Assembly (NCBI GenBank): GCA_964430735.1
Contig: CAYSFB010000006.1
Coordinates: forward strand, 12,089-76,088
DNA from: an uncultured Planctomycetia bacterium
GTDB taxonomy: Bacteria; Omnitrophota; Gorgyraeia; 2-02-FULL-51-18; JAGOUK01
Length of the DNA: 64,000 nucleotides
Direction: 5' to 3'
Position numbers and translations under genes: made by a program. How positions within the stretch are numbered: the first letter of the stretch is position 1; every line of letters begins with the position of its first letter. This document shows positions 7,290-55,035 of the stretch, piece after piece. The notes under the pieces were generated by a model, which had not been told where the DNA came from, searched no databases, and saw only the letters and a list, made by a program, of their open reading frames with translations.

Positions 7290-7856
7290 TTATGCGAACA
7301 GGACGCGGTCTACTTTTTCGTCGTGCGGCTCGCGCGGAACGCGGTCCACGCGCTGACATTCAAACGCCGGCGCGATGCGCGCGGCCTTCCGGCCGAGCCG
7401 GGACAAAAACTTGTCGTAATACCCCTTGCCGCGGCCGAGCCGGTATCCCTCGCGGTCAAACGCGAGTCCGGGCACGATCACGCAATCAATCGCTGCCGGG
7501 TCCGCCGCCGGCAGCACGCCGGGGTCCGGCTCGAGAATCCCGAACGGCCCGGGAACAAAAGAACCTTCCCAGCGCGTGAGCCGCCGCGCTTCGAGCACGC
7601 CTTCCGCCGCCAGGACGCGCGGGACGAGGACGGTGCGCCCCTCGGACAAAAGCCGCCGGATGAGGCCGTGCGTATCAAACTCCTCGGGCATCGACACATA
7701 GCAAAATACGGTGCGGCTTTTTTGAAAAAGTTCGTCCGCCTGAAGCTCCCCGGCGAGCCGTGCGGACCGAAGCCGCCGGTCCTCGGGACTCATCTGCCGC
7801 AGCGCGGCCGCAATCCTGCTCCGCAGCGCTTTTTTTTGATCCGCGACGGGATCCAT
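7290..7856 (-). CDS. 5-formyltetrahydrofolate cyclo-ligase (MTHFS)
   Basis: Conserved motifs LVPRV, GYRLGRGKGYYD. I chose the internal Met (MDPVADQKKALRSRI...), which gives about 188 aa. Its ATG overlaps the Rrf2 stop as TGATG. The track ORF extends to 7979, but that extension is an Arg/Pro-rich stretch with no recognisable similarity. Confidence 0.75.
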   Translation of the reverse strand: MDPVADQKKALRSRIAAALRQMSPEDRRLRSARLAGELQADELFQKSRTVFCYVSMPEEFDTHGLIRRLLSEGRTVLVPRVLAAEGVLEARRLTRWEGSFVPGPFGILEPDPGVLPAADPAAIDCVIVPGLAFDREGYRLGRGKGYYDKFLSRLGRKAARIAPAFECQRVDRVPREPHDEKVDRVLFA

Positions 7857-8323
7857 CAAATATTGAAGTGGATCGGCTGCGCGAGAGCCGACCGGGGTTC
7901 CTGCCGCGCCGACTGGATCAGCTCTTCGAGCGAAACGCGGCTCAGGGCTTCGGCGAAGCCGTCCGACAGCCTCCGCCAAAAAAGCTCGGCCGCCGTGCGG
8001 GCAACCGGTTGGGACTTGCGGCTCGACGATGCGGCCGATCCGCGGGCTTCACCGCTCACGAGCTCGTCCTCGCCGAGTGCGGATAGCAGCGCGCCGACGC
8101 TGATTTGAGACGGCTTGGCCGTAAGCACATACCCGCCGCGCGGGCCACGGACGCTTTTGACCCAGCCCTCGCGCTTGATGCGGCTCAAGATCTGCTCGAG
8201 GTAGGCGGCCGAGATTTTTTCGTCCTCGGCGATTTGCGAAATGGAGACAGCGCTCTCCCCGTACCGTTCGGCGAGATAAAGCATCGCCGTCAGACCGTAA
8301 GTGGCGCGGGTAGAAAACTTCAT
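7856..8323 (-). CDS. Rrf2-family transcriptional regulator
   Basis: 155 aa with an Rrf2 winged-helix N-terminus (MKFSTRATYGLTAMLYLAE...SVRGPRGGYVLTAKP). It lacks the three-Cys Fe-S ligand set of IscR. Confidence 0.85.
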   Translation of the reverse strand: MKFSTRATYGLTAMLYLAERYGESAVSISQIAEDEKISAAYLEQILSRIKREGWVKSVRGPRGGYVLTAKPSQISVGALLSALGEDELVSGEARGSAASSSRKSQPVARTAAELFWRRLSDGFAEALSRVSLEELIQSARQEPRSALAQPIHFNI

Positions 8324-8333
8324 GGGGTCCCGG

Positions 8334-8771
8334 TCAGCCGCAGCGCTTGCAGAGGCCGAACAGTTTGTGGGAGTGGCTGATGATCTTGAAGCCCTGGCGG
8401 CGGGCTTCCTCTTCCTGGATCTTCTCGATGGCGTCGCTTTCGAACTCCAGGATGGTCTTGCACTTCACGCAGATCAGGTGGTCGTGGTGCTGTTTGCCGA
8501 GCATCGGCTCGTAGGACATGCGTCCGTCGCCGAAGTCGTGTCCTTCGAAGATTTTGGATTCGGTGAGGAGCGCCAGCGTCCGGTAGAGCGTGGCTTTGGA
8601 GATGGTGCGGTCTCGTTTTTTGACGAGGTCGAGCAGCTCTTCGGCGCCGAAGTGGCGCTTGGCCTCGAAGGCTTCGAGCAGGATCGCCCGCCGCTGAGAG
8701 GTGTACTTGAGGTCCCGCGCGGCCAAAAACTCCTCGAACTTTCTCTCGGCGTCGGCCAAAAACGGGCTCAT
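8334..8771 (-). CDS. Fur-family metalloregulator (Fur/Zur/PerR type)
   Basis: Starts at the internal Met (MSPFLADAERKFEEFL...). DNA-binding helix TLYRTLALL. HHDHLICVKC...CKRCG structural Zn site. The upstream part of the track ORF is Arg-rich with no recognisable similarity. Confidence 0.8.
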   Translation of the reverse strand: MSPFLADAERKFEEFLAARDLKYTSQRRAILLEAFEAKRHFGAEELLDLVKKRDRTISKATLYRTLALLTESKIFEGHDFGDGRMSYEPMLGKQHHDHLICVKCKTILEFESDAIEKIQEEEARRQGFKIISHSHKLFGLCKRCG

Positions 8772-8779
8772 GGTCACCT

Positions 8780-8989
8780 CTAGCTGCTGCAGCGGATGCG
8801 GACGATGTCCAGTTGTTCCCGGATATCTTTGAGCTGTTGGGCGATGTCGGCCTGGCTCTTGATCAGCGTGCCGATGTCTTTCTTGATCTGCGCCAGTTCC
8901 GCGTCCGGAACGTCGGCTGCGCGGACGCTCGCGGTCCCCACCGCCGCTGCTGCGGCCAAAACCAGCAGCAGCCATCCCGCGCGCTTCAT
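8780..8989 (-). CDS. small secreted/periplasmic coiled-coil protein (hypothetical)
   Basis: 69 aa: signal peptide MKRAGWLLLVLAAAAAVGTASVRA followed by an amphipathic helix. Its ATG directly abuts the stop of the upstream NIL-domain gene (TAGATG), and it ends 10 nt before the Fur start, so it looks operonic. Confidence 0.4.
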   Translation of the reverse strand: MKRAGWLLLVLAAAAAVGTASVRAADVPDAELAQIKKDIGTLIKSQADIAQQLKDIREQLDIVRIRCSS

Positions 8990-9229
8990 CTAGACCGTCG
9001 TCCGGCCGTCGGCGGCTTCGACTTTGACGCCGCGCGACTCGAGGTATTTGACGCCGGCGGTGAGGTCCGCTTCGGCACCTTCGAGTTCGAGCGTCATCTC
9101 GCCGATCGTCTCCGTCACGCGCGCGCGGCGGATGTTCGGGATGATGTTGAACTGCTTGGCCATCGTGAAGACCACCGGCTCCTGAACCCGTTCCGGCGGA
9201 AACACCAGCGTGACGCGTCGTGATGCCAT
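8990..9229 (-). CDS. NIL-domain (ferredoxin-like, MetN C-terminal type) small protein
   Basis: About 79 aa from the Met preceded by AAGGAGAG (MASRRVTLVFPPERVQEPVVFTMAKQFNIIPNIRRARV...LELEGAEADLTAGVKYLESRGVKVE). NIL-like beta-alpha-beta pattern. It lies between the sulfur-carrier gene and the fur-family gene. Confidence 0.55.
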   Translation of the reverse strand: MASRRVTLVFPPERVQEPVVFTMAKQFNIIPNIRRARVTETIGEMTLELEGAEADLTAGVKYLESRGVKVEAADGRTTV

Positions 9230-9251
9230 GTGACTCTCCTTTAAGAAAAAG

Positions 9252-9533
9252 TTAGCGCGCTCCGCCCGCAATGGCCGGAATGATCGAAACTTCGTCGCCG
9301 TCCTTAAGAGCCGTCTCGGCGCCGCTCAGGAAACGGATGTCTTCCTCGTTCACGTACACGTTCACAAAGCGGCGAAGCTTGCCGTCCGCATCGCAAAGGC
9401 GTTCCTTGATCCCGGGGAATTTGGCCTCGAGGTCTTTGAGCATGTCGTTCACGTTCGCGCCGGCAACCTGGACTTCGGACTGGTTGGCGGTGAGCTTTTG
9501 AAGGGGGGTCGGGATGCGGACTTTGATGGCCAT
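9252..9533 (-). CDS. MoaD/ThiS-family sulfur-carrier protein (CysO-like) with C-terminus ...AIAGGAR
   Basis: About 93 aa from the internal ATG ([25 protein letters not shown]...[16 protein letters not shown]). Beta-grasp pattern. A Gly-Gly is followed by two extra residues (AR) before the stop. A JAMM protease gene lies nearby at 15669-16067. Confidence 0.7.
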
Positions 9534-9546
9534 GGTTGTCTCCTGA

Positions 9547-10800
<1,254 letters not shown>

Positions 10801-10883
10801 TGTGAATAAAGGGGTTGTATTTATTTATGACCAAATTACTTGCGTATTCTAACATCCTGGAATGGGCAGGGCAAGTAATAGCA

Positions 10884-10909
10884 CGGGCCGCCCCCCAAGG
10901 GGCGGCCCG
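10884..10909 (-). terminator. GC-rich hairpin (cgggccgcccc-ccaa-ggggcggcccg) between the 1216-aa gene stop and the ThrC-like start; possible intrinsic terminator/attenuator
   Basis: Perfect 11-bp inverted repeat with a 4-nt loop. The downstream U-tract on the minus transcript is weak (UGCUAUUACUU). Confidence 0.3.
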
Positions 10910-10933
10910 CATAGACCTCGTTCAATCATTCAG

Positions 10934-13900
10934 TTACGAGAGCGGATTGCCTGCGATGAGTTCGCGTCCCGGTTCTTCCGGTGCCGCGAACCGCTCATCC
11001 TCACTCTGTTCAGACTGCTGGTCCTGAACCCAGTGCATGTCCAGAATCTGATCCATCGCCGTATTCTGCAGCTCCTCCTCCATCACGGACGAACTCATAT
11101 CGTCCGGGTCGAGCCAGCCGTCGCCGATCGGCAGAATAAACCACTCGTCAACCGGATCGCTCCACTCATCCACTTCGCCTAAATTGACAAGCGACGCAAA
11201 ACGCTCGCCGTCGGCGGATTTGAATTCGAACACCAGGGTTCCAAGCTCCTGCCCGCCTTCCTGCACGAGATAAAACTGATCGATCTGAAAGTCCTCTCCG
11301 CCAAAGTACTCGCGGGCTTCCGCCTGAGCGCGTCCGAGAACATCCTCGGGGCCGTTCTTGCCCAAATAGTGAAGCTCGACCGGTTCCGGCTGTTCCTTGT
11401 CAGGCGATACGAGGTAGCGGGCTTCAAAATGATCGGACTCAAGACCAAATTCGTATATGCCCTTGCCGCCCTCCACCCAGCGGGTGCGGAATTCGTTCTC
11501 AGACGAGGCCACTCCCTCCGCCAAGTGCGTCCGGGCGCTCTGATTGGCGGCGACCACATCGGGATCGACCTCCATCCCGCCGTCAAAGGAAGGCGCATCG
11601 GATCCGGAGGGCGCCAAGGTGCCCGCATAGTCCCGGACATCCACCCTTCCGCTCCGCCAATCATGTTCGCCGTACTTGAAAGCGGCCGCATACGTCCAGA
11701 CGCCGTTTTCCCAGCGAGTTTCGGCAATCCCGATTTCCGCAGGATCGGCGTTGAGCTTCTCCGCGACGGCCTGGACCGCCATCTCCATCCTTTGCTTCAT
11801 ATATGCGGAGGGTTCCACATTGAGAATCGCGCCCTGGCGATTCACCCTCACGTCAAACCGGTATCCGGGCACCGTTTCGACGGCCAACACCATTTCACCT
11901 GCTGCGGGGTCATGCTGAGCCACGCCCGCTACCCGTGCGTCGACTCCATACTTGCGGATCACCGCATCGACCGCTGAGGCCGCAAGATCGGCGCCGGTTT
12001 CCTGATCGATCATCGTTCGAATGATTCGCTGAGCGGAATGGCGGGCATACTCTTCCGAATACACGGAATATCCAAAAAAGCCCGCCTCATACTCAATCTT
12101 GATGTCATGCCCCGCCGCCACCGCATAAATCAAGACCGCGGGCGAGATTCCCGACCCCTCTATCGGCCGCTCCAGAAGCAAAATTCCGTTGATAAAGGAC
12201 TCAGGAGCAACATCCTGATGCGATTGCTTAAAAATCCGGTTCAATTCATGCCGTGCGTCCGCTGCGGCGGTCAGAAGATCAAAGCCACCTTCCGTCGGTA
12301 GCGTCAGCGCGTCGCCGACGACCTTGCCCTTCACGGACGCGTGCGGAAGCAGGAAGTTTATGAATAGACTTTGGTCATCCGCAATCTCATAGCCGCTGAC
12401 CTCAACCGTCTCCGGGTTCAAAAGCCGGATCAACTCCTCTTTGGCCGCCTGGATTCGATCCTCGATGCGGTTGTCGACTTCCACCGCACCTGTTTGGAGA
12501 TCGGCGCGGGCCTCGTAAGTTTTGCCGTCCCTGTCCATCAGGGTGATCCTGAGCATCTGGTCATTCTCGAAGAACCAATCCGCCACGGTCAGCTCAACCG
12601 CGATATCCCGGCCGCCCGCAATCGAAGCCGCGACACGTTCCTTGGCTGTCTGCAAATATTCAACGCCGGTTTGCTGGTCCCAGATCCTGAACACACGGCT
12701 GTACGAAGGCATGTCGTATCGGGAATCCCCGCTCCAGTCATAGATGATGTCGAATCGGTCGGCTGTCCGATAAAAGAATTGATGCTGCGGCACGAATCCC
12801 TCGACCCGCGCCATCAACATCGTGTGTGTGTCGCCGCCCAAGACCCCGGCGCGGCTCATCACCTCGTACCGAGCGGCTCCGGCCGCCTCCACGAGATCCG
12901 GGTTCATCAACTGGACATTTGACTCGCGAATCTCCACATCCACCCCGGCATTGCCAAAAATACTCGTCTCTCCCATTCCATATTGGACCCAGATGCTTCC
13001 ATAGCCGGAAGGGCCGTACCCATCGATCCGGCCGCCGATCGGCGTAACGGGGTTCAGCTTGGCATTCACGGACTCCAGGATGCGGCTCAACTCCACACGG
13101 GCCTCGTCCATAACGGGTTCAATTTTTTCTAGGGTCACGCCGGAAGAGAGATCATCCCAACGGAATTCAAATTCCGCGCTGCCGCTGCGGAGGCGCACGG
13201 AGGCCGAGCCCCCGTCGGCAATGCACCGGACACAAATGGCTTCAGTAGGCGCGTTGATGATTCCGCGATTCTGAAGTTCACGTCGCGCCCCTTCCAGCGC
13301 GGTCACCATGGCCGGGTCCGCCTCGATCACGCCGGACTCGGGGTAGACGGTCATCCAAATCGAACTGTGGATGATGGTCGGACCGTCGACACCCGCCTGT
13401 TCCTGAACACCGCATTCCAGCTGAATCCGACCGCCTTCATCACGCGCAGAAAGCACTTTTACATCACCGAACGGTTCGAGTATTTTGGCGGCCTGCTTGA
13501 GCACATCCTTCAGCGTGACTTCATCTCCAAAGTGAAGAGCGAGCGCCTCGCCGGCCGCATCCAGCTCAACCCAAATTGTCTCGGTGAAGCTGATGCCCAT
13601 ATGGGAACCGTCACGCAATATGCCGAAGCTCATGATCGAATCACCGGGAAGTCCGGCGGTGCGGACCATTTGCTTGGCCTTCTCCACAAGATCGTCTCCC
13701 GAACGGCGCGAAATAAGCTTCTCCAGGCTGGTTCGCTTGGCCGACACGATGCCGTTTAATACATCTGCCTTGAGGATGGCCTTGTACATCGGGGTCGTGA
13801 TATCCGCCTCGATCGCTCGACCGGACTTATTGATTTCCTTGAAGAGCGGGGTCTCGAACCCGCGCAAGCCGTCGATATGCGTTTCGGAAAGGTCAGATCC

Positions 13901-14584
13901 ATCCTTACTGACCAATCGCTGCGATGCAAACCGACGCAAAGCGAGAACCGCTTCCTGCTCGTAATCCTGCAAACCCGAGGTCAACTGGTCCGGATCGACC
14001 CAGACCCGGATATCCCCGCCTTGAAGCTTGAATTGTACGATCGTCCGCGTGCTGTCCGGCGTGATGTTCACGACCTCGTAGATGCTGGGATTAACGATCG
14101 ACACCAACAGGTCCTTGGCAATCTTCTGCACGTCGATGACGACAGGCTTTCCTTGGTCGGCCGGTGTTGCCGACACCAGTCGGACATCGACGGCCCGGCC
14201 CGAATTGTCATAACTGAATTTTTCGATCGACTTCAGCCGCTGGGCAAAGTCGTAGCGGGCGCGGGAAACCAGCCGGTCCCCGATATAGAGGTCCCGGGTA
14301 CCAACGCGTCCGGCAGGTCCTGACCGATAGGAGTAAACCACTGATTTGGCGGCTGTGCTGCGCTTCGATAGACGGCCCCTGTTTCCCTTATAAGATTCGT
14401 CGAGATACTCCGAGCAGGATGACCCGAGGCACACGCTTTTGATCCGCCCGCTTCCATAATAAGTGTAGGCAGGTTTGATGGCGGCATCGGCTGATGGAAT
14501 GGCAAAGAGCACCGAGGAAAGGGGGATCGATACAAGCACCAGAAGTTTTGCGCAGTTGATGGTGATATTCGTGGAATTAGCCAT
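10934..14584 (-). CDS. large secreted hypothetical protein (1216 aa) with recurring PepSY-like beta-domain motifs and an acidic C-terminal tail
   Basis: N-terminal signal peptide (MANSTNITINCAKLLVLVSIPLSSVLFAIPSADA). No catalytic motif recognised. Repeated motifs of the type DRDGKTYEARADLQTGAVEV / ENGVWTYAAAFKYGEHDWRSGRVDV / ELGTLVFEFKSADGERFASLVNLGEV. AT-rich promoter region at 14585-14745. Confidence 0.7.
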   Translation of the reverse strand: MANSTNITINCAKLLVLVSIPLSSVLFAIPSADAAIKPAYTYYGSGRIKSVCLGSSCSEYLDESYKGNRGRLSKRSTAAKSVVYSYRSGPAGRVGTRDLYIGDRLVSRARYDFAQRLKSIEKFSYDNSGRAVDVRLVSATPADQGKPVVIDVQKIAKDLLVSIVNPSIYEVVNITPDSTRTIVQFKLQGGDIRVWVDPDQLTSGLQDYEQEAVLALRRFASQRLVSKDGSDLSETHIDGLRGFETPLFKEINKSGRAIEADITTPMYKAILKADVLNGIVSAKRTSLEKLISRRSGDDLVEKAKQMVRTAGLPGDSIMSFGILRDGSHMGISFTETIWVELDAAGEALALHFGDEVTLKDVLKQAAKILEPFGDVKVLSARDEGGRIQLECGVQEQAGVDGPTIIHSSIWMTVYPESGVIEADPAMVTALEGARRELQNRGIINAPTEAICVRCIADGGSASVRLRSGSAEFEFRWDDLSSGVTLEKIEPVMDEARVELSRILESVNAKLNPVTPIGGRIDGYGPSGYGSIWVQYGMGETSIFGNAGVDVEIRESNVQLMNPDLVEAAGAARYEVMSRAGVLGGDTHTMLMARVEGFVPQHQFFYRTADRFDIIYDWSGDSRYDMPSYSRVFRIWDQQTGVEYLQTAKERVAASIAGGRDIAVELTVADWFFENDQMLRITLMDRDGKTYEARADLQTGAVEVDNRIEDRIQAAKEELIRLLNPETVEVSGYEIADDQSLFINFLLPHASVKGKVVGDALTLPTEGGFDLLTAAADARHELNRIFKQSHQDVAPESFINGILLLERPIEGSGISPAVLIYAVAAGHDIKIEYEAGFFGYSVYSEEYARHSAQRIIRTMIDQETGADLAASAVDAVIRKYGVDARVAGVAQHDPAAGEMVLAVETVPGYRFDVRVNRQGAILNVEPSAYMKQRMEMAVQAVAEKLNADPAEIGIAETRWENGVWTYAAAFKYGEHDWRSGRVDVRDYAGTLAPSGSDAPSFDGGMEVDPDVVAANQSARTHLAEGVASSENEFRTRWVEGGKGIYEFGLESDHFEARYLVSPDKEQPEPVELHYLGKNGPEDVLGRAQAEAREYFGGEDFQIDQFYLVQEGGQELGTLVFEFKSADGERFASLVNLGEVDEWSDPVDEWFILPIGDGWLDPDDMSSSVMEEELQNTAMDQILDMHWVQDQQSEQSEDERFAAPEEPGRELIAGNPLS

Positions 14585-14745
14585 TTGGGTGGGTGCTCCT
14601 AATTAATATCATCAACTAATCGAATTTCAATCTTTGTAAGAACAGGTCAAAGGATACCACTGCCGTTAAACTGATTAGAATTTGGCATAAGATCAGCCAG
14701 TTTTCAAGGGGGGAAGAAAATTTTGATTAGAGGTTGTAGCTTGAA

Positions 14746-15672
14746 TTAGCCTTCGAAGTACTGAACCATGCTGAGATACCGTTCCCCGGAATCCGGAAAA
14801 AGTACCACAACCGTCTTTCCGGAGCCGAGCCGCTCGGCGGCCTTGAGGGCGCCCCAGCACGCTGCGCCGCAGCTGATGCCGGCGAAGATCCCCTCGAGCT
14901 TGCAGAGCCGGGACGCCGTCTTGTACGCGTCCTCGTCCGAGCAGCGAAAAATCTCATCGACTACTTCGCGGTTCAACGTCTGCGGGACGAATCCCGCGCC
15001 GATACCCTGGATCATATGCGCGCCGGGCTTGCCGCCGGACAAAACCGGCGACGTGGCCGGTTCCACGCCAATAATTTTGACGGCCGAATTGTGTTTCTTC
15101 AGCACTTCGCCGACGCCGGAGATCGTGCCGCCCGTGCCGATTCCCGCCACAAAGGCGTCGACCTTGCCGTCCAGATCCGCGAGGATTTCTTTGCCGGTCG
15201 TCTTCCGATGCGCGGCCGGGTTGTCGGGGTTCGTGAACTGACTGGGCATGAACGCGCCCTGGCTTTCGCGCACGAGCTGTTTGGCTTTTTCAACCGCGCC
15301 CGCCATGCCGGAGTCCACCGGCGTCAGCACTACTTCGGCGCCATATGACTTGAGGATCTGCAGCCGCTCGAAGCTCATGTTGTCGGGCATCACGAGCGTC
15401 ACGTGATACCCGCGCGCCGCGCCGACCATGGCCAAACCGATGCCGGTGTTGCCGCTCGTCGCTTCGACGATGCGCGAACCGGTCTTCACGAGACCGTTCT
15501 TCTCGGCCTGATCGATCATATTGAGGGCGATGCGGTCCTTCACGCTGCCACCCGGGTTGAACACCTCGAGCTTCGCGTACACGTCCGCCGCGCCCTTGGG
15601 CACGATGCGGTTCAGCTTCACCATCGGCGTGTTGCCGATCAGATCAGAAATGGACTGGACGGGCTTCGTCAT
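14746..15672 (-). CDS. cysM: cysteine synthase (CysK/CysM family; probably CysM-type using a protein thiocarboxylate donor)
   Basis: 308 aa. PLP lysine motif (GGSVKDR). TSGNTG glycine loop. Its ATG overlaps the stop of the JAMM gene (ATGA). Confidence 0.9.
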   Translation of the reverse strand: MTKPVQSISDLIGNTPMVKLNRIVPKGAADVYAKLEVFNPGGSVKDRIALNMIDQAEKNGLVKTGSRIVEATSGNTGIGLAMVGAARGYHVTLVMPDNMSFERLQILKSYGAEVVLTPVDSGMAGAVEKAKQLVRESQGAFMPSQFTNPDNPAAHRKTTGKEILADLDGKVDAFVAGIGTGGTISGVGEVLKKHNSAVKIIGVEPATSPVLSGGKPGAHMIQGIGAGFVPQTLNREVVDEIFRCSDEDAYKTASRLCKLEGIFAGISCGAACWGALKAAERLGSGKTVVVLFPDSGERYLSMVQYFEG

Positions 15673-16067
15673 ACGACCCGGATCTCCTCAGGCGTCACGT
15701 CGTCCCCCGCGATCCGGTAGGACCGCAGGTCGGGGTTGTTCATGTCGGCCAGCGACACGATGAGGTAACTCACTTCCGGATAAAAGGCCTGACGGCGGTC
15801 GGTCTGCGACGGCTCCGGCGCCGACGCGACATGCGAATGAAAAATTCCGAGCAAGTCCTGCCCGTCCGCGGAAATTTGCTTGAAGGCCTTGAGCTGCTGC
15901 TTCGGATCCATCGTGTACGTGACGGTCGAATGGTCCATGTTCTCGATCGGCAAAAAGTATTTGGCCCGGCCGTTCTTTCCGACCAGGAATCCGCACGCTT
16001 CCTGCGGATACACGCCCTTCGCGTGCTGGACCATTGCCGTGTGGACGTCTTTGGGGATCTCAAGCAT
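15669..16067 (-). CDS. mec: JAMM/MPN+ metalloprotease (Mec+-like, CysO hydrolase)
   Basis: About 133 aa from the internal Met (MLEIPKDVHTAMVQHAKGVYPQEACGFLVG...). JAMM motif E...HSHVASAPEPSQTD (HxHx7Sx2D). The upstream part of the track ORF is Arg-rich with no recognisable similarity. Confidence 0.8.
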   Translation of the reverse strand: MLEIPKDVHTAMVQHAKGVYPQEACGFLVGKNGRAKYFLPIENMDHSTVTYTMDPKQQLKAFKQISADGQDLLGIFHSHVASAPEPSQTDRRQAFYPEVSYLIVSLADMNNPDLRSYRIAGDDVTPEEIRVV

Positions 16068-16072
16068 CGTCG

Positions 16073-16807
16073 TTATTTTCCTGTCGGCCGGTTGTGCAGG
16101 CCGCATTCCTTGTGATCCGGACTTTCCCACCACCACCGTCCGGCGCGCTCGTCCTCGCCCTCTTTGACGGGCCGGGTACAGGGCGCGCAGCCGATGGACC
16201 GGTAACCGGCATCGAACAGCTTGTTGTAAGGAACCTTGTTGCCGCGGATATACGCCCACACCCGCGCCTCGTCCCAGTCGGCCAGGGGGTTCAGCTTCAC
16301 GATCCCGCCCTGAGTCGCCGCGCCCTGCGAGGAATCGATCTCGACCTTGCCGACCTCGGTCCGCGTCACCGACTGCGCCCGGCGCTGTCCCGTGACCCAG
16401 GCTTCAGCTCCGGCCAGCGCGCGCCGGAGCGGTTCGACCTTGCGGATCCCGCAGCACTCCTTGCGGTTCTCGACCGATTCCTTGAACGAATAAAAACCTT
16501 TGGCCCGCACCAGCTGCTCGACCCGCGCCGCGTCCGGAAAAAACACCTCGATCCCGACGCCGTACTTAAACTTGACCGCGTCCATGACCGCGTACGTCTC
16601 TTCGTGGAGACGGCCCGTATCGAGCGTCACGATCCGGACTTTGGGGTCGATCTTCACGGCCATATCGATGAGCACGACGTCCTCGGGACCAAACGACGAC
16701 GCGAGCACGATCTTGGGCCCGAACTTCTTGAGCGCCCAGCCCAAAAGCGCCTCAGGCGACTGCGCTTCGAATTCCCTGCTGAGCTGAACCGCTTCGTCCT
16801 GCTTCAT
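16073..16807 (-). CDS. cysH: adenylylsulfate (APS)/PAPS reductase, Fe-S-containing CysH type
   Basis: 244 aa. PP-loop SFGPEDVVLIDM. Cys pairs CCGIRKVEPL and ECGLH, typical of APS-reductase-type CysH. Confidence 0.85.
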   Translation of the reverse strand: MKQDEAVQLSREFEAQSPEALLGWALKKFGPKIVLASSFGPEDVVLIDMAVKIDPKVRIVTLDTGRLHEETYAVMDAVKFKYGVGIEVFFPDAARVEQLVRAKGFYSFKESVENRKECCGIRKVEPLRRALAGAEAWVTGQRRAQSVTRTEVGKVEIDSSQGAATQGGIVKLNPLADWDEARVWAYIRGNKVPYNKLFDAGYRSIGCAPCTRPVKEGEDERAGRWWWESPDHKECGLHNRPTGK

Positions 16808-16818
16808 AAAAAAGCGGT

Positions 16819-18086
<1,268 letters not shown>

Positions 18087-18087
<1 letters not shown>

Positions 18088-18890
18088 TACATGTACCCTT
18101 TCGCGCGGAGTTTTTGCATCGCGTAGCGCTGCGAATGGTCCTGTTCGCGGCCGACGCGCTCTGAGATCTTGGTGTTTTTAAGTTCTTCAATCACCTTGTC
18201 GACGGTATCGGCGTTGGACTCCACGGGCTTGGTGATCGGCTGGCAGCCGAGCGTGCGGTAACGCTTGCCGTTCTTGGCGAAGTAGAGGTCCACGAGCGGA
18301 ATATTCTCGCGCTTGATGTAATTCCACACGTCGACCTCGGTCCATTCGAGGAGCGGATGGATGCGCACGTGCGTGCCGGGCTCGTAATCCGACTGGAACT
18401 GGTTCCACAGCTCCGGCGGCTGATCCTTGTAATTCCACTCGAAGTCGATGTTGCGGGGTGAAAAGTATTTTTCCTTCGCGCGCGTGCCGTCCTCATCGCG
18501 GCGGATGCCGACAAAAAGCCCGTCCCACTTCTCTTTTTCGATCATCTGCTGGAGGGCAACGGTCTTCATCTCGTGGCAGACGGTGACGGGGTCATTGTTG
18601 TCGTAATTGACGCCGCGTGCCTTGGCCGCTTCGTTGACGCCGACGATGAGCTTGAGGCCCCATTCCCTGGCGTACTTTTCGCGGTAGGCGTACATTTCGG
18701 GGAATTTGAAGGTGGTGTCGATGTGGACGACCGGGAACGGCACCTTGCCGAAAAAAGCCTTCCGGGCGAGCCAGACGTTCACGCAGGAGTCCTTCCCCAT
18801 CGACCACAGCATCGCGGGCTTCTTGAACTTCTTGTAAGCCTCGCGGATGATAAAAATTGACTGGTTTTCGAGCGCGCTCAAATGATCCAC
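18087..18890 (-). CDS. cysD: sulfate adenylyltransferase subunit 2
   Basis: 267 aa. PP-loop motif WSMGKDS. Conserved CysD core. Overlaps the cysN start by 1 nt. Confidence 0.9.
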
Positions 18891-18967
18891 GGCTAAAAAA
18901 GCTCCTTTATCCGATGAATTCAGTAGGGTTTAATCAGACTAAATTCTAATAAATCCAAGTTCAGCTG

Positions 18968-20314
18968 TCAAGATTTGCCCTTTTCGGCCTTTTGCTGCGT
19001 CGAGAGCTTGGACTTGAGGGATTCCAGATACGCTTTGAAGGTTTTTTCGTGCCCCTGCTCCGTCGGCTCGTAGTATCGCCGGCTCTCGGTCATGTATTCC
19101 TGGGCAACGTGGTGGCCGGGGTGGTCATGGGCGTACTGGTAGCCGACGCCGCGGCCGAGGGATTCGGCTCCCTTATAGTGAGAATCCTTGAGATGTGACG
19201 GGACTTCGAGGGATCGGCCCTCCTCCACGTCCTTGGTCGCCTTTTCGATCGCCAGATACGCCGCATTCGATTTGGGCGCGCAGGCGATGTACGTCGTGGC
19301 CTGGGCCAGCGGGATCCTCGCCTCGGGCATACCGATGAATTCCGACGCCTGCAGCGCGGCGTTGGCGATGACCAGCGCCTGCGGGTCGGCGTTGCCGACG
19401 TCCTCCGACGCGCAGATCACCAGGCGCCGCGCGACGAAGCGCGGGTCTTCGCCGGCGTACAGCATTTTGGCCAGATAATAAACCGCCGCATCGGGGTCCG
19501 ATCCGCGCATGGATTTGATGAAGGCGGAGGCGTGGTCGTAGTGCTCGTCGCCGGCGTTGTCGTAGCGGACGGCCTTTTTCTGAACTGACTCCTGGGCGAC
19601 GGCCAAATTAAAATCGATGGTTCCATCCTTGCCGGGGACGGTCGAGAGGACGCCGATCTCCAGGGCGTTCAAGGCCCGGCGCGCGTCACCTTCCGACATC
19701 GCCGCCAAGAACTTAAGCGCTTCGCGGTCCATCCGCACCGGCGTCGCGGCCAACCCACGCTCCCTGTCCGACAACGCGCGCGTCAGCACGTCCATCACGT
19801 CCGCCTCTTCCAAAGGCTTGAGCTCGAACACGAGCGACCGGGACAATAGCGGTGAATTCACCGAAAAAAACGGATTCTGCGTCGTCGCGCCGATGAGCAG
19901 CGGATTGCCGCGCTCGACGTCGGGCATGAGGACGTCCTGCTGCGAACGGCTGAACCGGTGGATCTCATCGACGAAGAGGATGGTCCGCTTGCCGTAAGCT
20001 TTTTGATTCACCTTGGCCTTGTCGATGATCTTGCGCAGATCCGCGACGCTCGAAGAAACGGCGTTGACGGATTCGAAGAAGGCCTTGGTCTGGCGCGAAA
20101 CGATGAGGGCGAGCGTCGTCTTTCCGCAACCGGGAGGGCCGTAGAGGATGATGGATGAGAGCCGGTCCGTTTCGATGACGCGGCGGAGCAGCGTCCCTTC
20201 TTTGAGGATGTGCCGCTGGCCGCAGAACTCCTCGAGCGTCCGCGGCCTCATCCGGCTGGCCAGCGGCTCATGCTTCAAGACTTCCTGAGAATTTTGGGCT
20301 TCAAAAAGGTCCAT
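18968..20314 (-). CDS. rarA: replication-associated recombination protein A (AAA+ ATPase RarA/MgsA)
   Basis: Starts at the internal Met (MDLFEAQNSQ...). Walker A GPPGCGKTT. Walker B ILFVDEIHRF. MgsA C-terminal helical domain. The 71-aa upstream extension in the track ORF is not supported. Confidence 0.85.
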   Translation of the reverse strand: MDLFEAQNSQEVLKHEPLASRMRPRTLEEFCGQRHILKEGTLLRRVIETDRLSSIILYGPPGCGKTTLALIVSRQTKAFFESVNAVSSSVADLRKIIDKAKVNQKAYGKRTILFVDEIHRFSRSQQDVLMPDVERGNPLLIGATTQNPFFSVNSPLLSRSLVFELKPLEEADVMDVLTRALSDRERGLAATPVRMDREALKFLAAMSEGDARRALNALEIGVLSTVPGKDGTIDFNLAVAQESVQKKAVRYDNAGDEHYDHASAFIKSMRGSDPDAAVYYLAKMLYAGEDPRFVARRLVICASEDVGNADPQALVIANAALQASEFIGMPEARIPLAQATTYIACAPKSNAAYLAIEKATKDVEEGRSLEVPSHLKDSHYKGAESLGRGVGYQYAHDHPGHHVAQEYMTESRRYYEPTEQGHEKTFKAYLESLKSKLSTQQKAEKGKS

Positions 20315-36499: not shown

Positions 36500-36830
36500 T
36501 AAGGCCGGTTAGAAGCGAGAATTATATCACAATTCCAGGCCGTCGCAAACCAAACGCCGAGCAAGAATCACTATCTTTTTTGTATTTTCTCCGACCGAGG
36601 CCCGACCCGGTCGTGTCCTCGTCCGAATGACGACAGTCTAAATAAGTATTATATCTATTAACATGAATCAGATATTATTATTAATTATTTGTTATGGATA
36701 TTGATTAAATAACTCTAGAGTCCATACTTATATTGGAAATAAAATATATGGTTATTAAAGTCCATAAAAATAAGATTTTGCATATTTCATCCTGGGTGAT
36801 GAGCTTTGTCTTCATCTTCCACACCTTGGC
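36500..36830. other. strongly AT-rich tract (rpmH-proximal intergenic region plus the first 100 nt or so of the giant gene): candidate promoter and/or DNA-unwinding element of oriC
   Basis: Runs such as aaataagtattatatctattaacatgaatcagatattattattaattatttgttatggatattgattaaataactc contrast sharply with the GC-rich flanks. Position: between rpmH and dnaA. Confidence 0.5.
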
Positions 36831-39800
36831 AGGAGATGCTGGCGTCGCTTGGGCCGACCTATTCCTGGACGATCAGTCACAATCTGGGCTCATTGACTCC
36901 ACGCTGCGTCCCGATCCAGGCGTGGAAGCCGCTCAAGCGGATGAAGAAGCCGGTATCACACGCTATCCAAGCGGCCGGATCCAGTCCCAAAGAAACGCAG
37001 AAACCGGCGCGATCACTTACTTCGAGGATCGATACCCGGGGCGCATCAGCCAGGTGGAATATCCGGACGGAACCATGGAGGTGGTCAAGGCATATGATGC
37101 GGTCACGAACGAAGCCAAAACGGTCGAGCGCTACGATGCGGATGGCGCTCTGCTTCACCGTATCGACTATGAATACACGTCCGTGAACGGGACGGTTCAA
37201 GTCGCGGCATCGGTGCGCGGACCATCGGGCACGACGCCTTATTCGCTGACCTATGTCAAAGATGAGAACAATGTCGTATCAATGAAAAAACTGGAGGTGT
37301 TCGGCGCATCCGGACCCGGGGCGGATTTGGCGAGTCTCATGAATGCTACCGATCATCAGAACTCGCCGCTTCCTGGAGGCTGGTCTGCAGTGACAAATGG
37401 TTACTTCGTTCCGGATAAAATTTCTTTTGAGATTCTGCCGGACGATACGGTGGATCTCGTTTATTCCCGCGGGCCCCTCGTGCCGGTCGAAACGCGAAAC
37501 AGCTGGAATGCCGCCGCCAGCACGTTCACGACCAGCTTCGACCTCGAGATCAGCGGCCGCCCGGACCTTGGCCTCATAACGACCGATTGGTCGATCGCAC
37601 TGACGTCTTCGGGAAGCGTTTATTTGCCTTTTTTGCTTAAGACGATCACCACGGACTTTGTCATGGACTTCGGTTTTAACGGCGGTATGGGCAAAGCCCA
37701 TGAAGTGGGTCTTCTCAACTACGATCAGCGAGGATTGATCACGGAGACGACCAACGCTCAGCTCCTCTACGACGCAGACGGTAAGCTGCTCGCGGAGAGC
37801 GGGCAGCGGCTCACTTACGGTTACTCGACCTATCAGCCGAACGACCAGCCGCAGATTCTTCTGACCAGCGTCACGCGCCTCGACCTTGCGGGTCCTTCCC
37901 AACAAACTGTCAGCCGGGAATTCGTCCAGGTCGGAAATGATCTGCGTGTATCCGAGATCCACCATGCGGACGGACGGACGGTCCTGTATGACTCTTTGGG
38001 CCGCGTCTCCGAAATGCGCTTCGCCGATGGGGCCATCGAAAAAATCTTGCTCTACGAGGGAGATTCCTCCCGGATCCTCGCAGCCGAACGCCGCAACGCC
38101 CGGGGCGTCGTCACCCACAGACTCGGTTACATTTACTCCACGGTCCAGGGGGTCGAATACACCACCGTGAATGTCCAGGGGCCCGATGCGACCACCGGCT
38201 ATAGTTTTACCTACTTCCAGAATTCCTCCGGCTCCACGCAGCTGGCCAGGTTCGATCTCACAACCCGGCCGGAAGGGTTTAAGGATTTTTATCTGGGCTA
38301 TTCCAGCCCTTCTGCTGGCGCCGAACTCAGTCCTGAATCCGGTTTGTATCAAAGATTTGGCTGGGACCTGTTCGGCGGCGGATCTGACACCGTTTTTGCG
38401 GGCAGCACGAGCCTTTCGCTCAACGCCGACGGATCCGCAAATGGCACCGGCGGCTCCGGACAAATCCCCCTGACCGTGTCGTGGGATCCTGGGACCTCGA
38501 CCGTCACGGCCCATCAGAACGCAAAGGTCCTCGGCACGGACTTCTCCGCGGACTGGTCCATCCATTTCACCTCCACCGCGGATTCTTTGATGCCTTTTCG
38601 GATCGATGCGGTGAGCGCCTCCGCTTCCAACGCCGACGGCAGCCGGCAGGGCGGTGTCGTTTATCAATACGATCCCGACGGATTGCTGACGAAAAAGGTG
38701 GTCTCCTCCAAGGACGTGCCGAACGGCCAAAGAGAGACAACCACCGACTACACGTATACGACTTATGAGCTGTCGGGTCGGTCCATCGTTGTTCTGACCG
38801 GATCTGCGCGGCATTATTTGCAAAAGGCCCCGTCCTCCGGAGGGACCGATTACACCGAGTCGACCGGCGCTTCGAGAGAATTCGAAGTGATGGGCAACTA
38901 TCTCGTCACTTCAAAGTTCAGCAGCAGTGAATACATGAGTCCGACCGGTGATTTTTACCATCAATACGACGCTTTGTATGACTACGAGACCATCGACGGA
39001 AAGCCCTATCTCACATCCAGCGCGTATGCGGGAGACGGCCGCGTCCCCGGTCCGACCGCCTTTTTTATCTATACCCCCGAGTCGAGAAGTCTGCCCTTCA
39101 CACAAAATGGCCGCTATGACTATGCGTATGGGGTCGTGAACGGCGAAGTCAAACTTCTGGAGCAAAAGGAACACTTCGAGCTCTTGTCCCAAAACGGCAA
39201 CCTGCTCGTGAACGACACGACGACGACCAGCCAGTACGGTGTCGTCGGCGGCCAAACGGTCCTCCTTGCGTCCACGATGACCCAACGCGCGGAAGTTTCC
39301 AAGGACGGCATCAAGCTCAGCAGCTATGTCGTGGACAACCCGAGGGTCAGCCGATACGCAGTGATCGACGGAAAAACGACCCAGATCATGAGCCGGAACG
39401 CCTATCGTCGCGTCATCACCAACTTGCTGACCTCGGAAGTTTACACAGAGGACAGCATGCGCATGAATGTCCTGAACCGGACCCGGGGCGTGATGCTCGA
39501 GAAGCTGGTCTACACCAGCAACAGTCAGGACATCACGAGGATCGCTCCGGATTTTGACTCCACGCTTGCCGGTCTTCAGCAGGACTACCCGGAACTGTTC
39601 CAGTCGCTGGAACCCGGGTCGTGGGGATACCTTCCTCCCACTGATATAAAAGAATACGACGCCGGCACAGGCAAGCTCGTCAAGATCACCTACGAAAATG
39701 GAGACGTTCGGGAGTTCGATCCGGACGGGTTGGTGAAAAGCTTTTATGAGGCCGCCACCGGCAACAGGACCGAATACATGCCGGACACGCTGAACCGTCC

Positions 39801-42742: not shown

Positions 42743-42751
42743 TGTGGATAA
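42743..42751. promoter_or_regulatory. DnaA box (TGTGGATAA, perfect) overlapping the dnaA GTG start codon
   Basis: Read directly: ...tcTGTGGATAAtttgaac, where GTG GAT AAT TTG AAC codes for V/M-D-N-L-N of DnaA. Confidence 0.5.
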
Positions 42752-44096
42752 TTTGAACATTCTATCGCCTCAGGACGTCTGGGCGAAGGTGATGGAATAC
42801 CTGGAACGCGAACTTTCGGCCGTTTCGATCGACCGATGGTTCCGGAACCTCACCCCTTCCGAAGTCTCCGATCAAACGCTTACCGTCGACGTTCCGGACG
42901 AATTTTTTAAAAATTGGATCGAAGAGCACTACCTTGAATTGATTTATCAGGGGCTCAAGAGTTCCGGTTCGCCCGTTTCGCAGTTCAAACTCAAAGTCGT
43001 TCCGCGTAAAATCACCGACACGCCGGCTCCCAGCGCATCGCCCGATCGCTTTTCGTCCGAACAGCCGCGGCCTGACCGACCCACGCTCAATTCGCAGTGC
43101 ACGTTCGAAGAATTCGTCGTCGGGCCGTCGAACCGTTTCGCGCACGCGGCATGCCTCGCCGTCGCGGACCGCCCGGCCAAAGCGTACAACCCACTGTTCA
43201 TCCACGGCCCCGTGGGCCTGGGCAAAACCCATCTCATGCAGGCCATCGGACACGAAGTGCTGCGCCGCAATCCGAACGCGAGCGTTCTCTATATTACGAG
43301 CGAAAAGTTCACCAACCAGCTCATCAACGCGATTCAGAACCAGACGACGCTCAAGTTCCGCGAAAAATACCGCACGGTCGACGTGCTGCTCATCGACGAC
43401 ATCCACTTTATCGCCGGCAAAGAAGCGACGCAGGAAGAGTTCTTCCATACGTTCAACGCTCTGCACGACAGCCACAAGCAGATCATCGTTTCGAGCGACC
43501 GGCCGCCCAAGGAAATCATCAATCTCGAAGAGCGCCTCATCTCCCGTTTTGAGTGGGGTCTCGTCACGGACATCCAGAAACCGGACTTCGAGACGCGGGC
43601 GGCCATCCTGCGTAAAAAAGCCCTGCGCCACAACATTCCCGTTCCGGATCCGGTCACGAACTTCATCGCTGAGATTGTTCACTCCAACATCCGCGAGCTT
43701 GAAGGCGCGCTCATGCGGGTGGTCGCCTACGCGGAACTCACGACGATGCCGGTCACACTCGAACTTGCCCAGGAAGTCCTGAAGCGTGTGGCGCAGGAGA
43801 GCGAAAAAAAGATCACGCTTGAATACATTCAAAAGAAGGTGAGCGACTACTTCTCAATCCGAATCAATGAGCTCATGGCCAAGCGCCGTAGTAAAAATAT
43901 CGTTTTACCGCGCCAGATCGCAATGTACCTTTCGAGAGAATTAACAAATCATTCGCTTCCCGAGATCGGACAGTCGTTCGGCGGAAAGGACCACACCACA
44001 GTCATGCATGCGTGTGAAAAGATCCGGACAGGTCTCGAAAAAGACATGAGCCTTAAAGAAATGGTAAATCGCATTCGTCAGACCATTTCCAACTAG
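42744..44096 (+). CDS. dnaA: chromosomal replication initiator DnaA
   Basis: 450 aa. Walker A GPVGLGKTHL. Sensor and box VII motifs. C-terminal DNA-binding domain. Apparent GTG start. Confidence 0.95.
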   Translation: MDNLNILSPQDVWAKVMEYLERELSAVSIDRWFRNLTPSEVSDQTLTVDVPDEFFKNWIEEHYLELIYQGLKSSGSPVSQFKLKVVPRKITDTPAPSASPDRFSSEQPRPDRPTLNSQCTFEEFVVGPSNRFAHAACLAVADRPAKAYNPLFIHGPVGLGKTHLMQAIGHEVLRRNPNASVLYITSEKFTNQLINAIQNQTTLKFREKYRTVDVLLIDDIHFIAGKEATQEEFFHTFNALHDSHKQIIVSSDRPPKEIINLEERLISRFEWGLVTDIQKPDFETRAAILRKKALRHNIPVPDPVTNFIAEIVHSNIRELEGALMRVVAYAELTTMPVTLELAQEVLKRVAQESEKKITLEYIQKKVSDYFSIRINELMAKRRSKNIVLPRQIAMYLSRELTNHSLPEIGQSFGGKDHTTVMHACEKIRTGLEKDMSLKEMVNRIRQTISN

Positions 44097-54040: not shown

Positions 54041-55035
54041 GGCGCCGGAAGATCGGGCGGCAGGGATTCGAGATGCCGTCCATCGGCTTGGGCTGCATGG
54101 GGATGAGCTTCGCCTACGGCCAGGCCGACGAAGCGGAGTCGCTGCGGACGCTCGAGCGCGCTCTCGATCTCGGCATGGATCACTGGGACACCGCGGAAAT
54201 CTACGGGCCCTTCAAGAACGAAACGCTCATCGGGCGCTTCCTCGCCGCTTCGCCCGGCCGCCGCAAGCGGGTGACGCTTGCGACCAAATTCGCTTGGCGA
54301 TTCTCGCCGGAAGGGGAGCGGCTCGGACTCGACGGTAGCGCCGCCAACCTGCGCCGCGCGATCGAGGGCTCGCTCAAGCGGCTCGGCACCGACCACGTCG
54401 AACTTTATTATCATCACCGCAACGACCCGCAGGTTCCGATCGAAGAAACGGTGGGCGCGATGGCGGAGCTGGTGCTCGAGGGCAAGGTGCGTTTTCTAGG
54501 ACTGTCCGAAGTCGGACCCGAAACGCTGCGGCGCGCGCATGCGGTCCATCCGATCACGGCGCTCCAGAGCGAATATTCCCTCTGGCATGTGCCGCTGCGG
54601 GAGCGGATGCTGCCGGTATTGCGGGAGCTCGGAATCGGCCTGGTCGCCTACAGCCCGGTGGGCCGGGGATTTTTGACGGGCGTCGTGAAGCCCGCGGAGG
54701 AAATGGGCCGGGACGACATCCGGCGGACGTTTCCGCGCTTCCAGAAGGAACACGCCGCCGCCAACCTCCGGCTGGTGGACGCGCTGCGCCGGTTCGCCGA
54801 GGAAAAAAACGCCACGGTTCCGCAGCTGTGCATCGCGTGGCTGTTGGAGCAGGGGGACGACATCGTCACGATTCCGGGAACGACCCGGGTGGACCATCTC
54901 GAAGAGGACGCGGCCGCCGACCGGCTCCGGCTGTCAGAGGGCGATATGGAAGCGGTCGAAAAAATTTTGAGGGACTATCCGGTGAGCGGACCGAGACTGC
55001 CCGAAGGCATGATGCGACTGATCAATACCGTTTGA
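54037..55035 (+). CDS. aldo/keto reductase
   Basis: 332 aa from MRRRKIGRQGFEMPSIGLGCMGMS.... AKR catalytic tetrad context (DTAEIYG, HVELYYHHR). Its start overlaps the upstream gene stop (ATGA). The track ORF extends upstream to 53437 without support. Confidence 0.85.
   Translation: MRRRKIGRQGFEMPSIGLGCMGMSFAYGQADEAESLRTLERALDLGMDHWDTAEIYGPFKNETLIGRFLAASPGRRKRVTLATKFAWRFSPEGERLGLDGSAANLRRAIEGSLKRLGTDHVELYYHHRNDPQVPIEETVGAMAELVLEGKVRFLGLSEVGPETLRRAHAVHPITALQSEYSLWHVPLRERMLPVLRELGIGLVAYSPVGRGFLTGVVKPAEEMGRDDIRRTFPRFQKEHAAANLRLVDALRRFAEEKNATVPQLCIAWLLEQGDDIVTIPGTTRVDHLEEDAAADRLRLSEGDMEAVEKILRDYPVSGPRLPEGMMRLINTV

Follow-up and report, generated by a model that had tools for sequence, protein, structure and literature searches.

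The stretch analysed here (the window) comprises 64,000 nucleotides from an uncultured Planctomycetia bacterium that GTDB places in the Omnitrophota (contig CAYSFB010000006.1, positions 12,089 to 76,088); the names attached to the closest homologues likewise indicate Candidatus Omnitrophota. It carries on its minus strand an operon that probably makes homocysteine, and perhaps cysteine, with sulfur borne on a ubiquitin-like carrier protein. We consider it likely that the region is what remains of a single Omnitrophota operon, cysD-cysN-cysH-JAMM-cysK-metM-carrier-NIL, now cut in two by a gene for a protein of 1216 amino acids. This reading draws on the identities of the genes, the family placement of their products, the conserved order in which the genes stand, their fusion and fission, and riboswitch linkage in relatives. 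Every feature listed by a first-pass annotation of this DNA was located on the minus strand at the same coordinates, including the carrier gene directly downstream of a ThrC-family enzyme with a Cys4 zinc ribbon, and the NIL gene next to it. The genes of the operon are as follows, in the order of transcription; hidden Markov model E-values of the order given are far beyond chance.

18087–18890, minus strand: cysD, sulfate adenylyltransferase small subunit (NCBIfam PRK05253, 367 bits against a cut-off of 195; Pfam PAPS_reduct).
16819–18087, minus strand: cysN, GTPase subunit of sulfate adenylyltransferase, lacking an APS-kinase (adenosine 5'-phosphosulfate kinase) domain (TIGR02034, 386 bits against a cut-off of 336); the cysD stop and the cysN start overlap.
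16073–16807, minus strand: cysH, iron-sulfur-type APS reductase (TIGR02055, 266 bits against a cut-off of 235; CC, CAPC and ECGLH motifs).
15669–16067, minus strand: JAMM/MPN+ metalloprotease, Mec/HcyD-like, 132 amino acids (Pfam Prok-JAB, E=1e-23).
14746–15672, minus strand: CysK-type cysteine synthase (TIGR01139 cysK).
9547–10800, minus strand: MetM-like ThrC-family pyridoxal phosphate (PLP) enzyme with an N-terminal Cys4 zinc ribbon, 417 amino acids (Pfam PALP, E=8e-67; relatedness to actinobacterial metM).
9252–9533, minus strand: CysO/MetO-type ubiquitin-like sulfur carrier with a masked C-terminus, 93 amino acids (Pfam ThiS, E=5e-18).
8990–9229, minus strand: standalone NIL-domain protein, 79 amino acids (Pfam NIL, E=3e-17).

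The ThrC-family enzyme is a fold-type II PLP protein whose catalytic PLP lysine is Lys110 in the motif SFKDR, and its zinc-ribbon residues Cys9, Cys12, Cys24 and Cys27 are invariant across relatives. It is 36.6% identical (200 bits) to the threonine synthase ThrC of Bacillus subtilis, and 49–55% identical (369–468 bits) to 80 actinobacterial homologues found in a search of species-representative genomes. An S-adenosylmethionine (SAM-I) riboswitch lies directly upstream in all 11 of the actinobacterial loci scanned with Rfam, and a carrier gene follows immediately downstream in about 50 of the 80. The 27 actinobacterial carrier tails that were read end in Gly-Gly (GG) in 20 instances, in GGC in six, and in a longer extension in one. 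The MetM/MetO homocysteine pathway is known from Streptomyces albulus through the work of Hasebe et al. (2024), of which the GapMind 2026 preprint and PMC12172450 give summaries. In these secondary descriptions, metM/metO consists of a riboswitch, a "threonine synthase" homologue and a sulfur carrier, with Mec acting as a carrier-cysteine hydrolase. The actinobacterial pattern of riboswitch and downstream carrier fits this description, and we therefore read these homologues as metM orthologues. Loci L004–L027 (L numbers denote fetched loci), from Micromonosporaceae and relatives, hold riboswitch-controlled metM orthologues with no adjacent carrier gene, unlike Streptomyces; the carrier must be encoded elsewhere there, or may be shared with CysO.

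For a phylogenetic placement, four solved threonine synthases (B. subtilis, Aquifex, Thermus and Mycobacterium tuberculosis) were recovered from PDB alignments and included in a neighbour-joining tree. The window protein and its other Omnitrophota relatives are sister to the riboswitch-linked actinobacterial genes, and the resulting clade excludes the four solved enzymes in 50 of 50 bootstraps, so that no firm clustering with ordinary threonine synthases is seen. At 28 alignment positions, the MetM-type clade and the four solved enzymes are fixed for different residues. These positions include T88, S155, R160 and N188 of the Thermus enzyme, which we take to be phosphate-site residues; a literature search gave no confirmation of this. 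The protein is most likely MetM-type rather than an ordinary threonine synthase, and the grouping supports the earlier suggestion of a MetM/MetO-type ThrC paralogue. We predict that it is a homocysteine synthase acting on O-phosphohomoserine in dependence on a carrier thiocarboxylate. Phylogeny and gene context argue against an ordinary threonine synthase, a role that the protein may still have at the biochemical level.

The carrier gene lies immediately downstream, 13 nucleotides from the ThrC-family gene. The best solved relative of its product is M. tuberculosis CysO (3dwg_C, E=4e-24, 88 bits); identity amounts to 52% with this protein, 56% with a Streptomyces MetO orthologue and 77% with the N-terminal half of Omnitrophota ThiS-NIL fusions. 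The NCBIfam moaD model gives 22.6 bits against a cut-off of 66, and no molybdopterin or thiamin genes are found near the carrier gene. The protein had been described at first pass as MoaD/ThiS-like with its GG masked by two residues, and both the sequence and Pfam ThiS agree: the tail reads ...PAIAGGAR, in which GG is followed by AR. Such extensions are common, with 1–36 extra residues after GG in 23 of 29 related carriers (a regular-expression sample). On sequence grounds, we place the carrier in the CysO/MetO subfamily, with its GG masked.

The NIL gene starts with an ATG 22 nucleotides past the carrier stop and is served by a separate AAGGAG ribosome-binding site. Its product scores 62.7 bits against a Pfam NIL cut-off of 24, its sole PDB relatives are the C2 domains of MetN, and its Asn32 aligns with MetN Asn295, a residue whose exchange in N295A abolishes methionine binding (PMC6233128). 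In other Omnitrophota relatives, carrier and NIL form a single protein of 171–192 amino acids, and the 120 best homologues of one such protein, that of L002, are all ThiS-NIL fusions. These fusions share a common pattern, consisting of an invariant PAIAGG, then Ala or Ser, a variable linker of 5–26 amino acids ending in Lys or Arg, and a NIL domain starting with RVTLVFP. An AlphaFold model of a ThiS-NIL fusion has two folded domains and a linker with a predicted local distance difference test (pLDDT) score below 50; its N-terminal domain matches CysO (template modelling score, TM, 0.87–0.92) and its C-terminal domain matches MetN C2 domains. In the window, the carrier ends with GGAR and a stop, and NIL restarts with MASRRVTLVFP in another reading frame. 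The close relatives L003 and L084 carry the same split (L087 is identical to the window), which marks it as a genuine fission of the gene inside the linker and not a sequencing error. The first-pass annotation treated NIL as the gene that follows the carrier; its position is as described, and it is more than a neighbour, since we interpret it as the split-off C-terminal half of an ancestral carrier-NIL precursor, cut within the linker. The conserved GG, the small residue and the variable linker together resemble a processing site, and the JAMM of the operon would be the obvious candidate for cleaving the ThiS-NIL junction.

Several other loci show carriers with related architectures. In L092 (6253–6810), carrier and NIL stand in one frame with a single stop codon between them (...AIAGGIR, stop, AIFMVTKQVELIYP...), which resembles the GGAR-stop of the window and could be either an independent fission or a read-through site. 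L122 (4416–4850), from an unidentified lineage, encodes a short ThiS-type carrier, not of the CysO/MetO type, fused to NIL (...YMAGG-EGGASKMVTK-RVRFNFP...), and in L139 (1–897) ThiS is fused to ThiF. Fusions that leave the carrier GG in the interior of a longer protein seem to have originated several times.

The association of NIL with the enzyme and the carrier extends beyond the Omnitrophota. When metagenomes were scanned with a representative of 60% identity, 80 diverse loci were obtained, whose enzyme shares 54–65% identity with the window protein. About 70 of these loci have a neighbouring gene for a CysO/MetO-type carrier, and a standalone NIL gene adjoins the MetM-like and carrier genes in 26, in three gene orders. 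A SAM riboswitch was found in half of the metagenome loci tested (19/38). A SAM-I riboswitch precedes the operon in 14 of the 26 loci with NIL, in several of them directly before the NIL gene; L137, of the NC10/Methylomirabilota type, reads riboswitch, NIL, MetM-like enzyme, carrier. This co-occurrence assigns NIL, along with the enzyme and the carrier, to the methionine regulon. It also refutes the idea that NIL substitutes for the riboswitch, under which the two would be expected to exclude each other. No NIL gene is present in the 80 actinobacterial loci. NIL is tied to the enzyme-carrier pair in at least the Omnitrophota and NC10, often under a shared SAM riboswitch, and is repeatedly fused to the carrier. 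We found no mention of this tie in the searchable literature, in which a text search for "ThiS" is confounded by the word "this"; Iyer et al. 2006 mention neither NIL nor threonine synthase together with carriers. As a tentative and somewhat doubtful generalisation, we postulate that in several phyla the MetM/MetO pathway has NIL as a third, so far overlooked member, serving as a small methionine- or homocysteine-binding subunit that controls or assists the pathway post-translationally. The same proposal holds that Omnitrophota carriers are pro-proteins (carrier-NIL and carrier-CysK, with carrier-ThiF in other, unidentified lineages) through whose maturation the JAMM gates sulfur flow, as with ubiquitin precursors, and that the single window carrier serves both enzymes.

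The upstream half of the operon contributes the JAMM and the CysK-type enzyme. The JAMM has Glu23 and, at residues 77–90, the sequence HSHVASAPEPSQTD, which contains HxHx7Sx2D (Prok-JAB, 84 bits). Its stop overlaps the start of the cysK-type gene as ATGA. It occurs in the same operon in L001–L003 and L084–L086, that is, in every Omnitrophota locus long enough, L087 being too short. Motif, overlap and location downstream of cysD-cysN-cysH had been noted before and are confirmed by Pfam, NCBIfam and motif analysis. The label cysM given to the next gene does not hold. Its product reaches 437.8 bits with TIGR01139 cysK (cut-off 350.95), its top PDB matches are CysK enzymes, and CysM is not among the top 60. 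Compared with M. tuberculosis CysM, it is 38% identical (180 bits) and has Gln, in the motif HMIQGIGAGF, where CysM has Arg220. This arginine is reportedly linked to O-phosphoserine specificity, a finding ascribed to Agren and colleagues in 2008. An identity as an O-phosphoserine-using CysM of the M. tuberculosis type is ruled out by the cysK score, the PDB ranking and the Gln at the Arg220 position. The Mec+/CysO/CysM logic that had been invoked for the region thus stands as far as a JAMM beside a cysteine synthase and a CysO-like carrier are concerned, and fails for the enzyme.

The window CysK-type enzyme is 66–73% identical to the product of the PALP gene that follows JAB-ThiS in relatives (66–70% for L001 and L002). 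In L001, L002 and L085, the order is JAB, a short ThiS-type carrier and CysK, and the GG of the carrier is masked (GGGA, GGGSPSDKEA and GGSL). The window, L003 and L084 have no second ThiS-type carrier, and their JAMM gene is coupled directly to cysK. Because the relatives possess a dedicated ThiS-type carrier between JAMM and CysK that is gone in the window lineage, it is plausible, but unproven, that the single remaining CysO/MetO-type carrier serves both the CysK and the MetM-type enzyme. Homocysteine formation has firmer support in the evidence than cysteine formation. The first-pass proposal of cysteine and possibly homocysteine synthesis is accordingly upheld for carrier-dependent homocysteine formation, with its emphasis reversed.

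Two further observations concern the relatives that retain the second carrier. In L086 (6967–8106), the short ThiS-type carrier and the CysK-type enzyme are joined in a single in-frame fusion (...EFVFYMGGGG followed by ISDGILDLVGNTPMVRL...), which makes the carrier Gly-Gly internal to a cysteine synthase. In L001, L002, L085 and L086, JAB-ThiS-CysK is interleaved with an NMT1/TauA-like ATP-binding cassette (ABC) importer, whose ATPase gene stands before JAB and whose permease and binding-protein genes stand after CysK. This suggests that uptake of a sulfur compound is coupled to the operon in the two-carrier Omnitrophota; all three importer parts are lost from the window.

From this gene set we infer the chemical steps, the substrates, both roles of the JAMM and the role of NIL as follows. 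CysDN and APS reductase would convert sulfate to sulfite, with sulfite reductase encoded elsewhere. The 93-amino-acid carrier would be made with its blocked tail, GG-AR, and trimmed to GG by the JAMM. An E1 of the ThiF/MoeZ type, supplied from outside the window, would then adenylate the carrier and lead to its thiocarboxylate. The MetM-type enzyme would combine O-phosphohomoserine with the carrier thiocarboxylate to give a carrier-homocysteine adduct, which the same JAMM may hydrolyse, freeing homocysteine and recycling the carrier. The CysK-type enzyme would make cysteine from the same carrier or from free sulfide. NIL, as a homologue of the methionine-binding MetN C2 domain, would be a third member of the homocysteine branch, whose most likely part is to bind a ligand and so sense methionine or homocysteine.

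Pfam scans of large open reading frames (ORFs) detect no ThiF-family E1 in the window, and a tblastn search of the window with a ThiF E1 from a related locus gives no match (best E=0.19), as the first-pass annotation had stated; none occurs within 10 kb in any Omnitrophota locus examined. According to published outlines of these systems, an E1 encoded away from the pathway genes is the rule in Streptomyces and Mycobacterium too. Some related clusters outside the Omnitrophota loci do contain an E1 gene: L122 encodes together a JAB protein, ThiF (291 bits), CysK, the ThiS-NIL fusion, a MetM-like enzyme and a carrier, and L139 has the ThiS-ThiF fusion noted above.

Several points weigh against carrier-dependent homocysteine synthesis in the window. 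The ThrC-family enzyme clears the NCBIfam TIGR00260 thrC equivalog (289 bits against a cut-off of 167), so that annotation pipelines will name it threonine synthase. The window has no SAM riboswitch, as Rfam gives no match of any kind in 8300–19200 even at E<=1; this element is characteristic of metM in Streptomyces and not strictly defining. The metM orthologues used for comparison were defined by riboswitch, adjacency and genus, and the S. albulus MetM sequence itself was not among them. A MetM-like cyanobacterial enzyme is described in outline as having threonine-related activities, and the window protein may likewise be bifunctional or act as a threonine synthase; the search for a second thrC covered the window and found none. 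In addition, CysK-type enzymes normally take free sulfide, and the window holds no E1, homoserine kinase or sulfite reductase. In a rival reading, the protein is the organism's real, possibly only, threonine synthase, with a carrier that serves molybdopterin, thiamin or tRNA thiolation and is adjacent by coincidence. The TIGR00260 score, the public annotations, all of which say threonine synthase, and the absence of another thrC from the window agree with this. We nevertheless regard it as very unlikely, given the full bootstrap separation from the solved ThrCs, the grouping with SAM-riboswitch-controlled genes and the recurrence of an adjacent carrier in most metagenome and actinobacterial loci. 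The carrier itself falls far below the moaD cut-off and has no molybdopterin or thiamin genes nearby.

Two other explanations concern what the carrier does. The carrier could be a SAMP/Urm1-like protein modifier and the JAMM a de-conjugating protease, the neighbouring PLP enzymes being regulated by covalent attachment with no delivery of sulfur. The NCBIfam SAMP1 model is passed narrowly (63.9 bits, cut-off 60), the best NCBIfam match of the JAMM is desampylase, yet at 96 bits below the cut-off of 130, and dual-function carriers are known from the Urm1 and SAMP literature. We give this explanation hardly any credence: the similarity to CysO is stronger, the context is sulfate assimilation with two sulfur-incorporating PLP enzymes, and related operons are under SAM riboswitches. 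A far closer contender accepts the homocysteine branch and confines the carrier to it, the CysK-type enzyme being an ordinary O-acetylserine sulfhydrylase that uses free sulfide and the JAMM-cysK coupling a relic of an ancestor with a ThiS-type carrier in between. The high cysK score and the CysK motif HMIQGIGAGF, with Gln at the CysM Arg220 position, fit this well, as does the disappearance of the small ThiS protein of L001, L002, L085 and L086 from the window, L003 and L084. On the other side, the orthologous CysK sits in JAB-ThiS-CysK in sister lineages and is fused to a carrier in L086, which speaks for this enzyme family working with a carrier, and the ATGA coupling to the JAMM is kept. 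A carrier shared by both enzymes and a CysK acting on free sulfide fit the gene-order facts equally well, and we hold the latter to be quite possible, if somewhat short of probable.

Carrier-dependent homocysteine synthesis, the reading we prefer, connects the window to several described systems. The closest is MetM/MetO of Streptomyces, with which it shares a zinc-ribbon ThrC-family enzyme followed by a CysO-like carrier (enzyme 50–52% and carrier 52–56% identical to the Streptomyces orthologues), a carrier C-terminus that is often blocked (GGC in the Streptomyces-type system, GGAR in the window), and the need for a JAMM and an E1 that can be encoded elsewhere. Unlike Streptomyces, the window has no SAM riboswitch, and its genes lie within a sulfate-assimilation/cysK/JAMM operon; unlike the actinobacterial systems in general, it has an extra NIL protein, which is fused to the carrier in most Omnitrophota. 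In Mec-CysO-CysM of M. tuberculosis, for which MoeZ is the E1, the JAMM also adjoins a cysteine synthase, the carrier resembles that of the window at the 52% identity noted above, and the exact JAB-carrier-PLP order is shared with sister Omnitrophota. The differences are that the PLP enzyme is CysK-type here, which makes O-acetylserine a likelier substrate than O-phosphoserine, and that the carrier beside CysK in sister lineages is a short ThiS-type protein, not a CysO-type one, and is gone in the window.

A second homocysteine route based on a protein thiocarboxylate is said to have been described by Krishnamoorthy and Begley in 2011 (a study cited in PMC5764234) in Wolinella succinogenes, where HcyS, HcyD, HcyF and MetY are clustered with sulfate assimilation. 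The Wolinella carrier reportedly bears an extra C-terminal residue that is removed by a JAMM, which also releases the product, and the E1 is encoded in the cluster. The Wolinella PLP enzyme is the O-acetylhomoserine sulfhydrylase MetY, of fold type I, in contrast to the ThrC-family, fold-type II enzyme of the window. NIL is tied to homocysteine or methionine metabolism here as in the MetN C2 domain and in the NIL-ferredoxin MA1822 of the DUF39 homocysteine route; unlike those, the window-type NIL is standalone or carrier-fused and not joined to an ABC ATPase or a ferredoxin. The precursors of ubiquitin and SAMP offer a further likeness, in that the GG of a beta-grasp protein is buried in a fusion (NIL, CysK or ThiF) or a short tail with a JAMM alongside; unlike ubiquitin or SAMP, the released carrier is expected to bear sulfur and not to tag proteins. 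The solved "MoaD related protein" of Thermus thermophilus (PDB 1v8c) has two domains, an N-terminal MoaD-like one that ends in ...VAGGG (residue 88) and an alpha/beta domain of some 80 residues behind it. The ThiS-NIL model aligns to 1v8c over both domains in Foldseek; in sequence, the C-terminal domain of 1v8c shows no significant similarity to NIL, and its domain orientation differs (root-mean-square deviation 12.6 Å). Three features depart from known systems: a NIL partner that can be fused to the carrier, the variety of carrier pro-proteins, and the loss of the second carrier in the window lineage.

The MetM/MetO route, described only in 2024 in Streptomyces, appears here as a conserved core-metabolism operon of the Omnitrophota, an uncultured candidate phylum. 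As every public record names this enzyme threonine synthase, auxotrophies for methionine and threonine predicted for these organisms are probably wrong. The carrier fusions with an internal Gly-Gly provide a simple bacterial system for the processing of ubiquitin-like precursors by a JAMM.

In L003 and L084, the gene order is cysD-N-H, JAB, CysK, MetM-like enzyme, carrier and NIL, with short gaps, and CysK adjoins the MetM-like gene. In the window, the two are separated by the 1216-amino-acid ORF, and three predicted signals accompany the operon:

18943–18971, minus strand: promoter-like site TTGACA-17-TAGAAT, 11 of 12 matches, 5' of cysD (predicted function, from a consensus scan alone).
10934–14584, minus strand: inserted ORF of 1216 amino acids (no Pfam or NCBIfam match).
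10882–10911, minus strand: terminator-like strong GC hairpin of 13 pairs, just 3' of the 1216-amino-acid ORF (pattern scan alone).
10846–10874, minus strand: promoter-like site TTGCCC-17-TG-TAGAAT, 5' of the MetM-like gene (pattern scan alone).

The product of the inserted ORF matches no Pfam or NCBIfam family and has a hydrophobic N-terminus. L003 and L084 have no such ORF between cysK and the MetM-like gene, and among all fetched loci it is matched only in the identical contig L087. It represents an insertion particular to this lineage, which divides the operon and stands outside the carrier system.

Two regulator genes lie just downstream of the operon. A gene for an Rrf2-family regulator (IscR/CymR family; 7856–8323, minus strand) occupies this place in all Omnitrophota loci of sufficient length. 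A Fur-family regulator gene (about 8334–8771, minus strand) is seen only in the window-type lineage; the 213-amino-acid Fur ORF is probably over-extended, as the gene calls of relatives are 142–151 amino acids long. Between NIL and Fur, an ORF of 69 amino acids with a signal-peptide-like N-terminus (8780–8989, minus strand) has no detectable sequence similarity to the small unannotated ORF at the matching position in relatives, apart from the identical contig L087. Elsewhere in the window, a 1931-amino-acid ORF with no Pfam match (36733–42528, plus strand) adjoins the replication-origin gene set, which comprises dnaA (42744–44096), dnaN, gyrB and gyrA, while parA/parB, gidA and yidC lie to the other side. 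At 55022–56074 on the minus strand, there is a type III polyketide synthase-like gene with chalcone/stilbene synthase domains.

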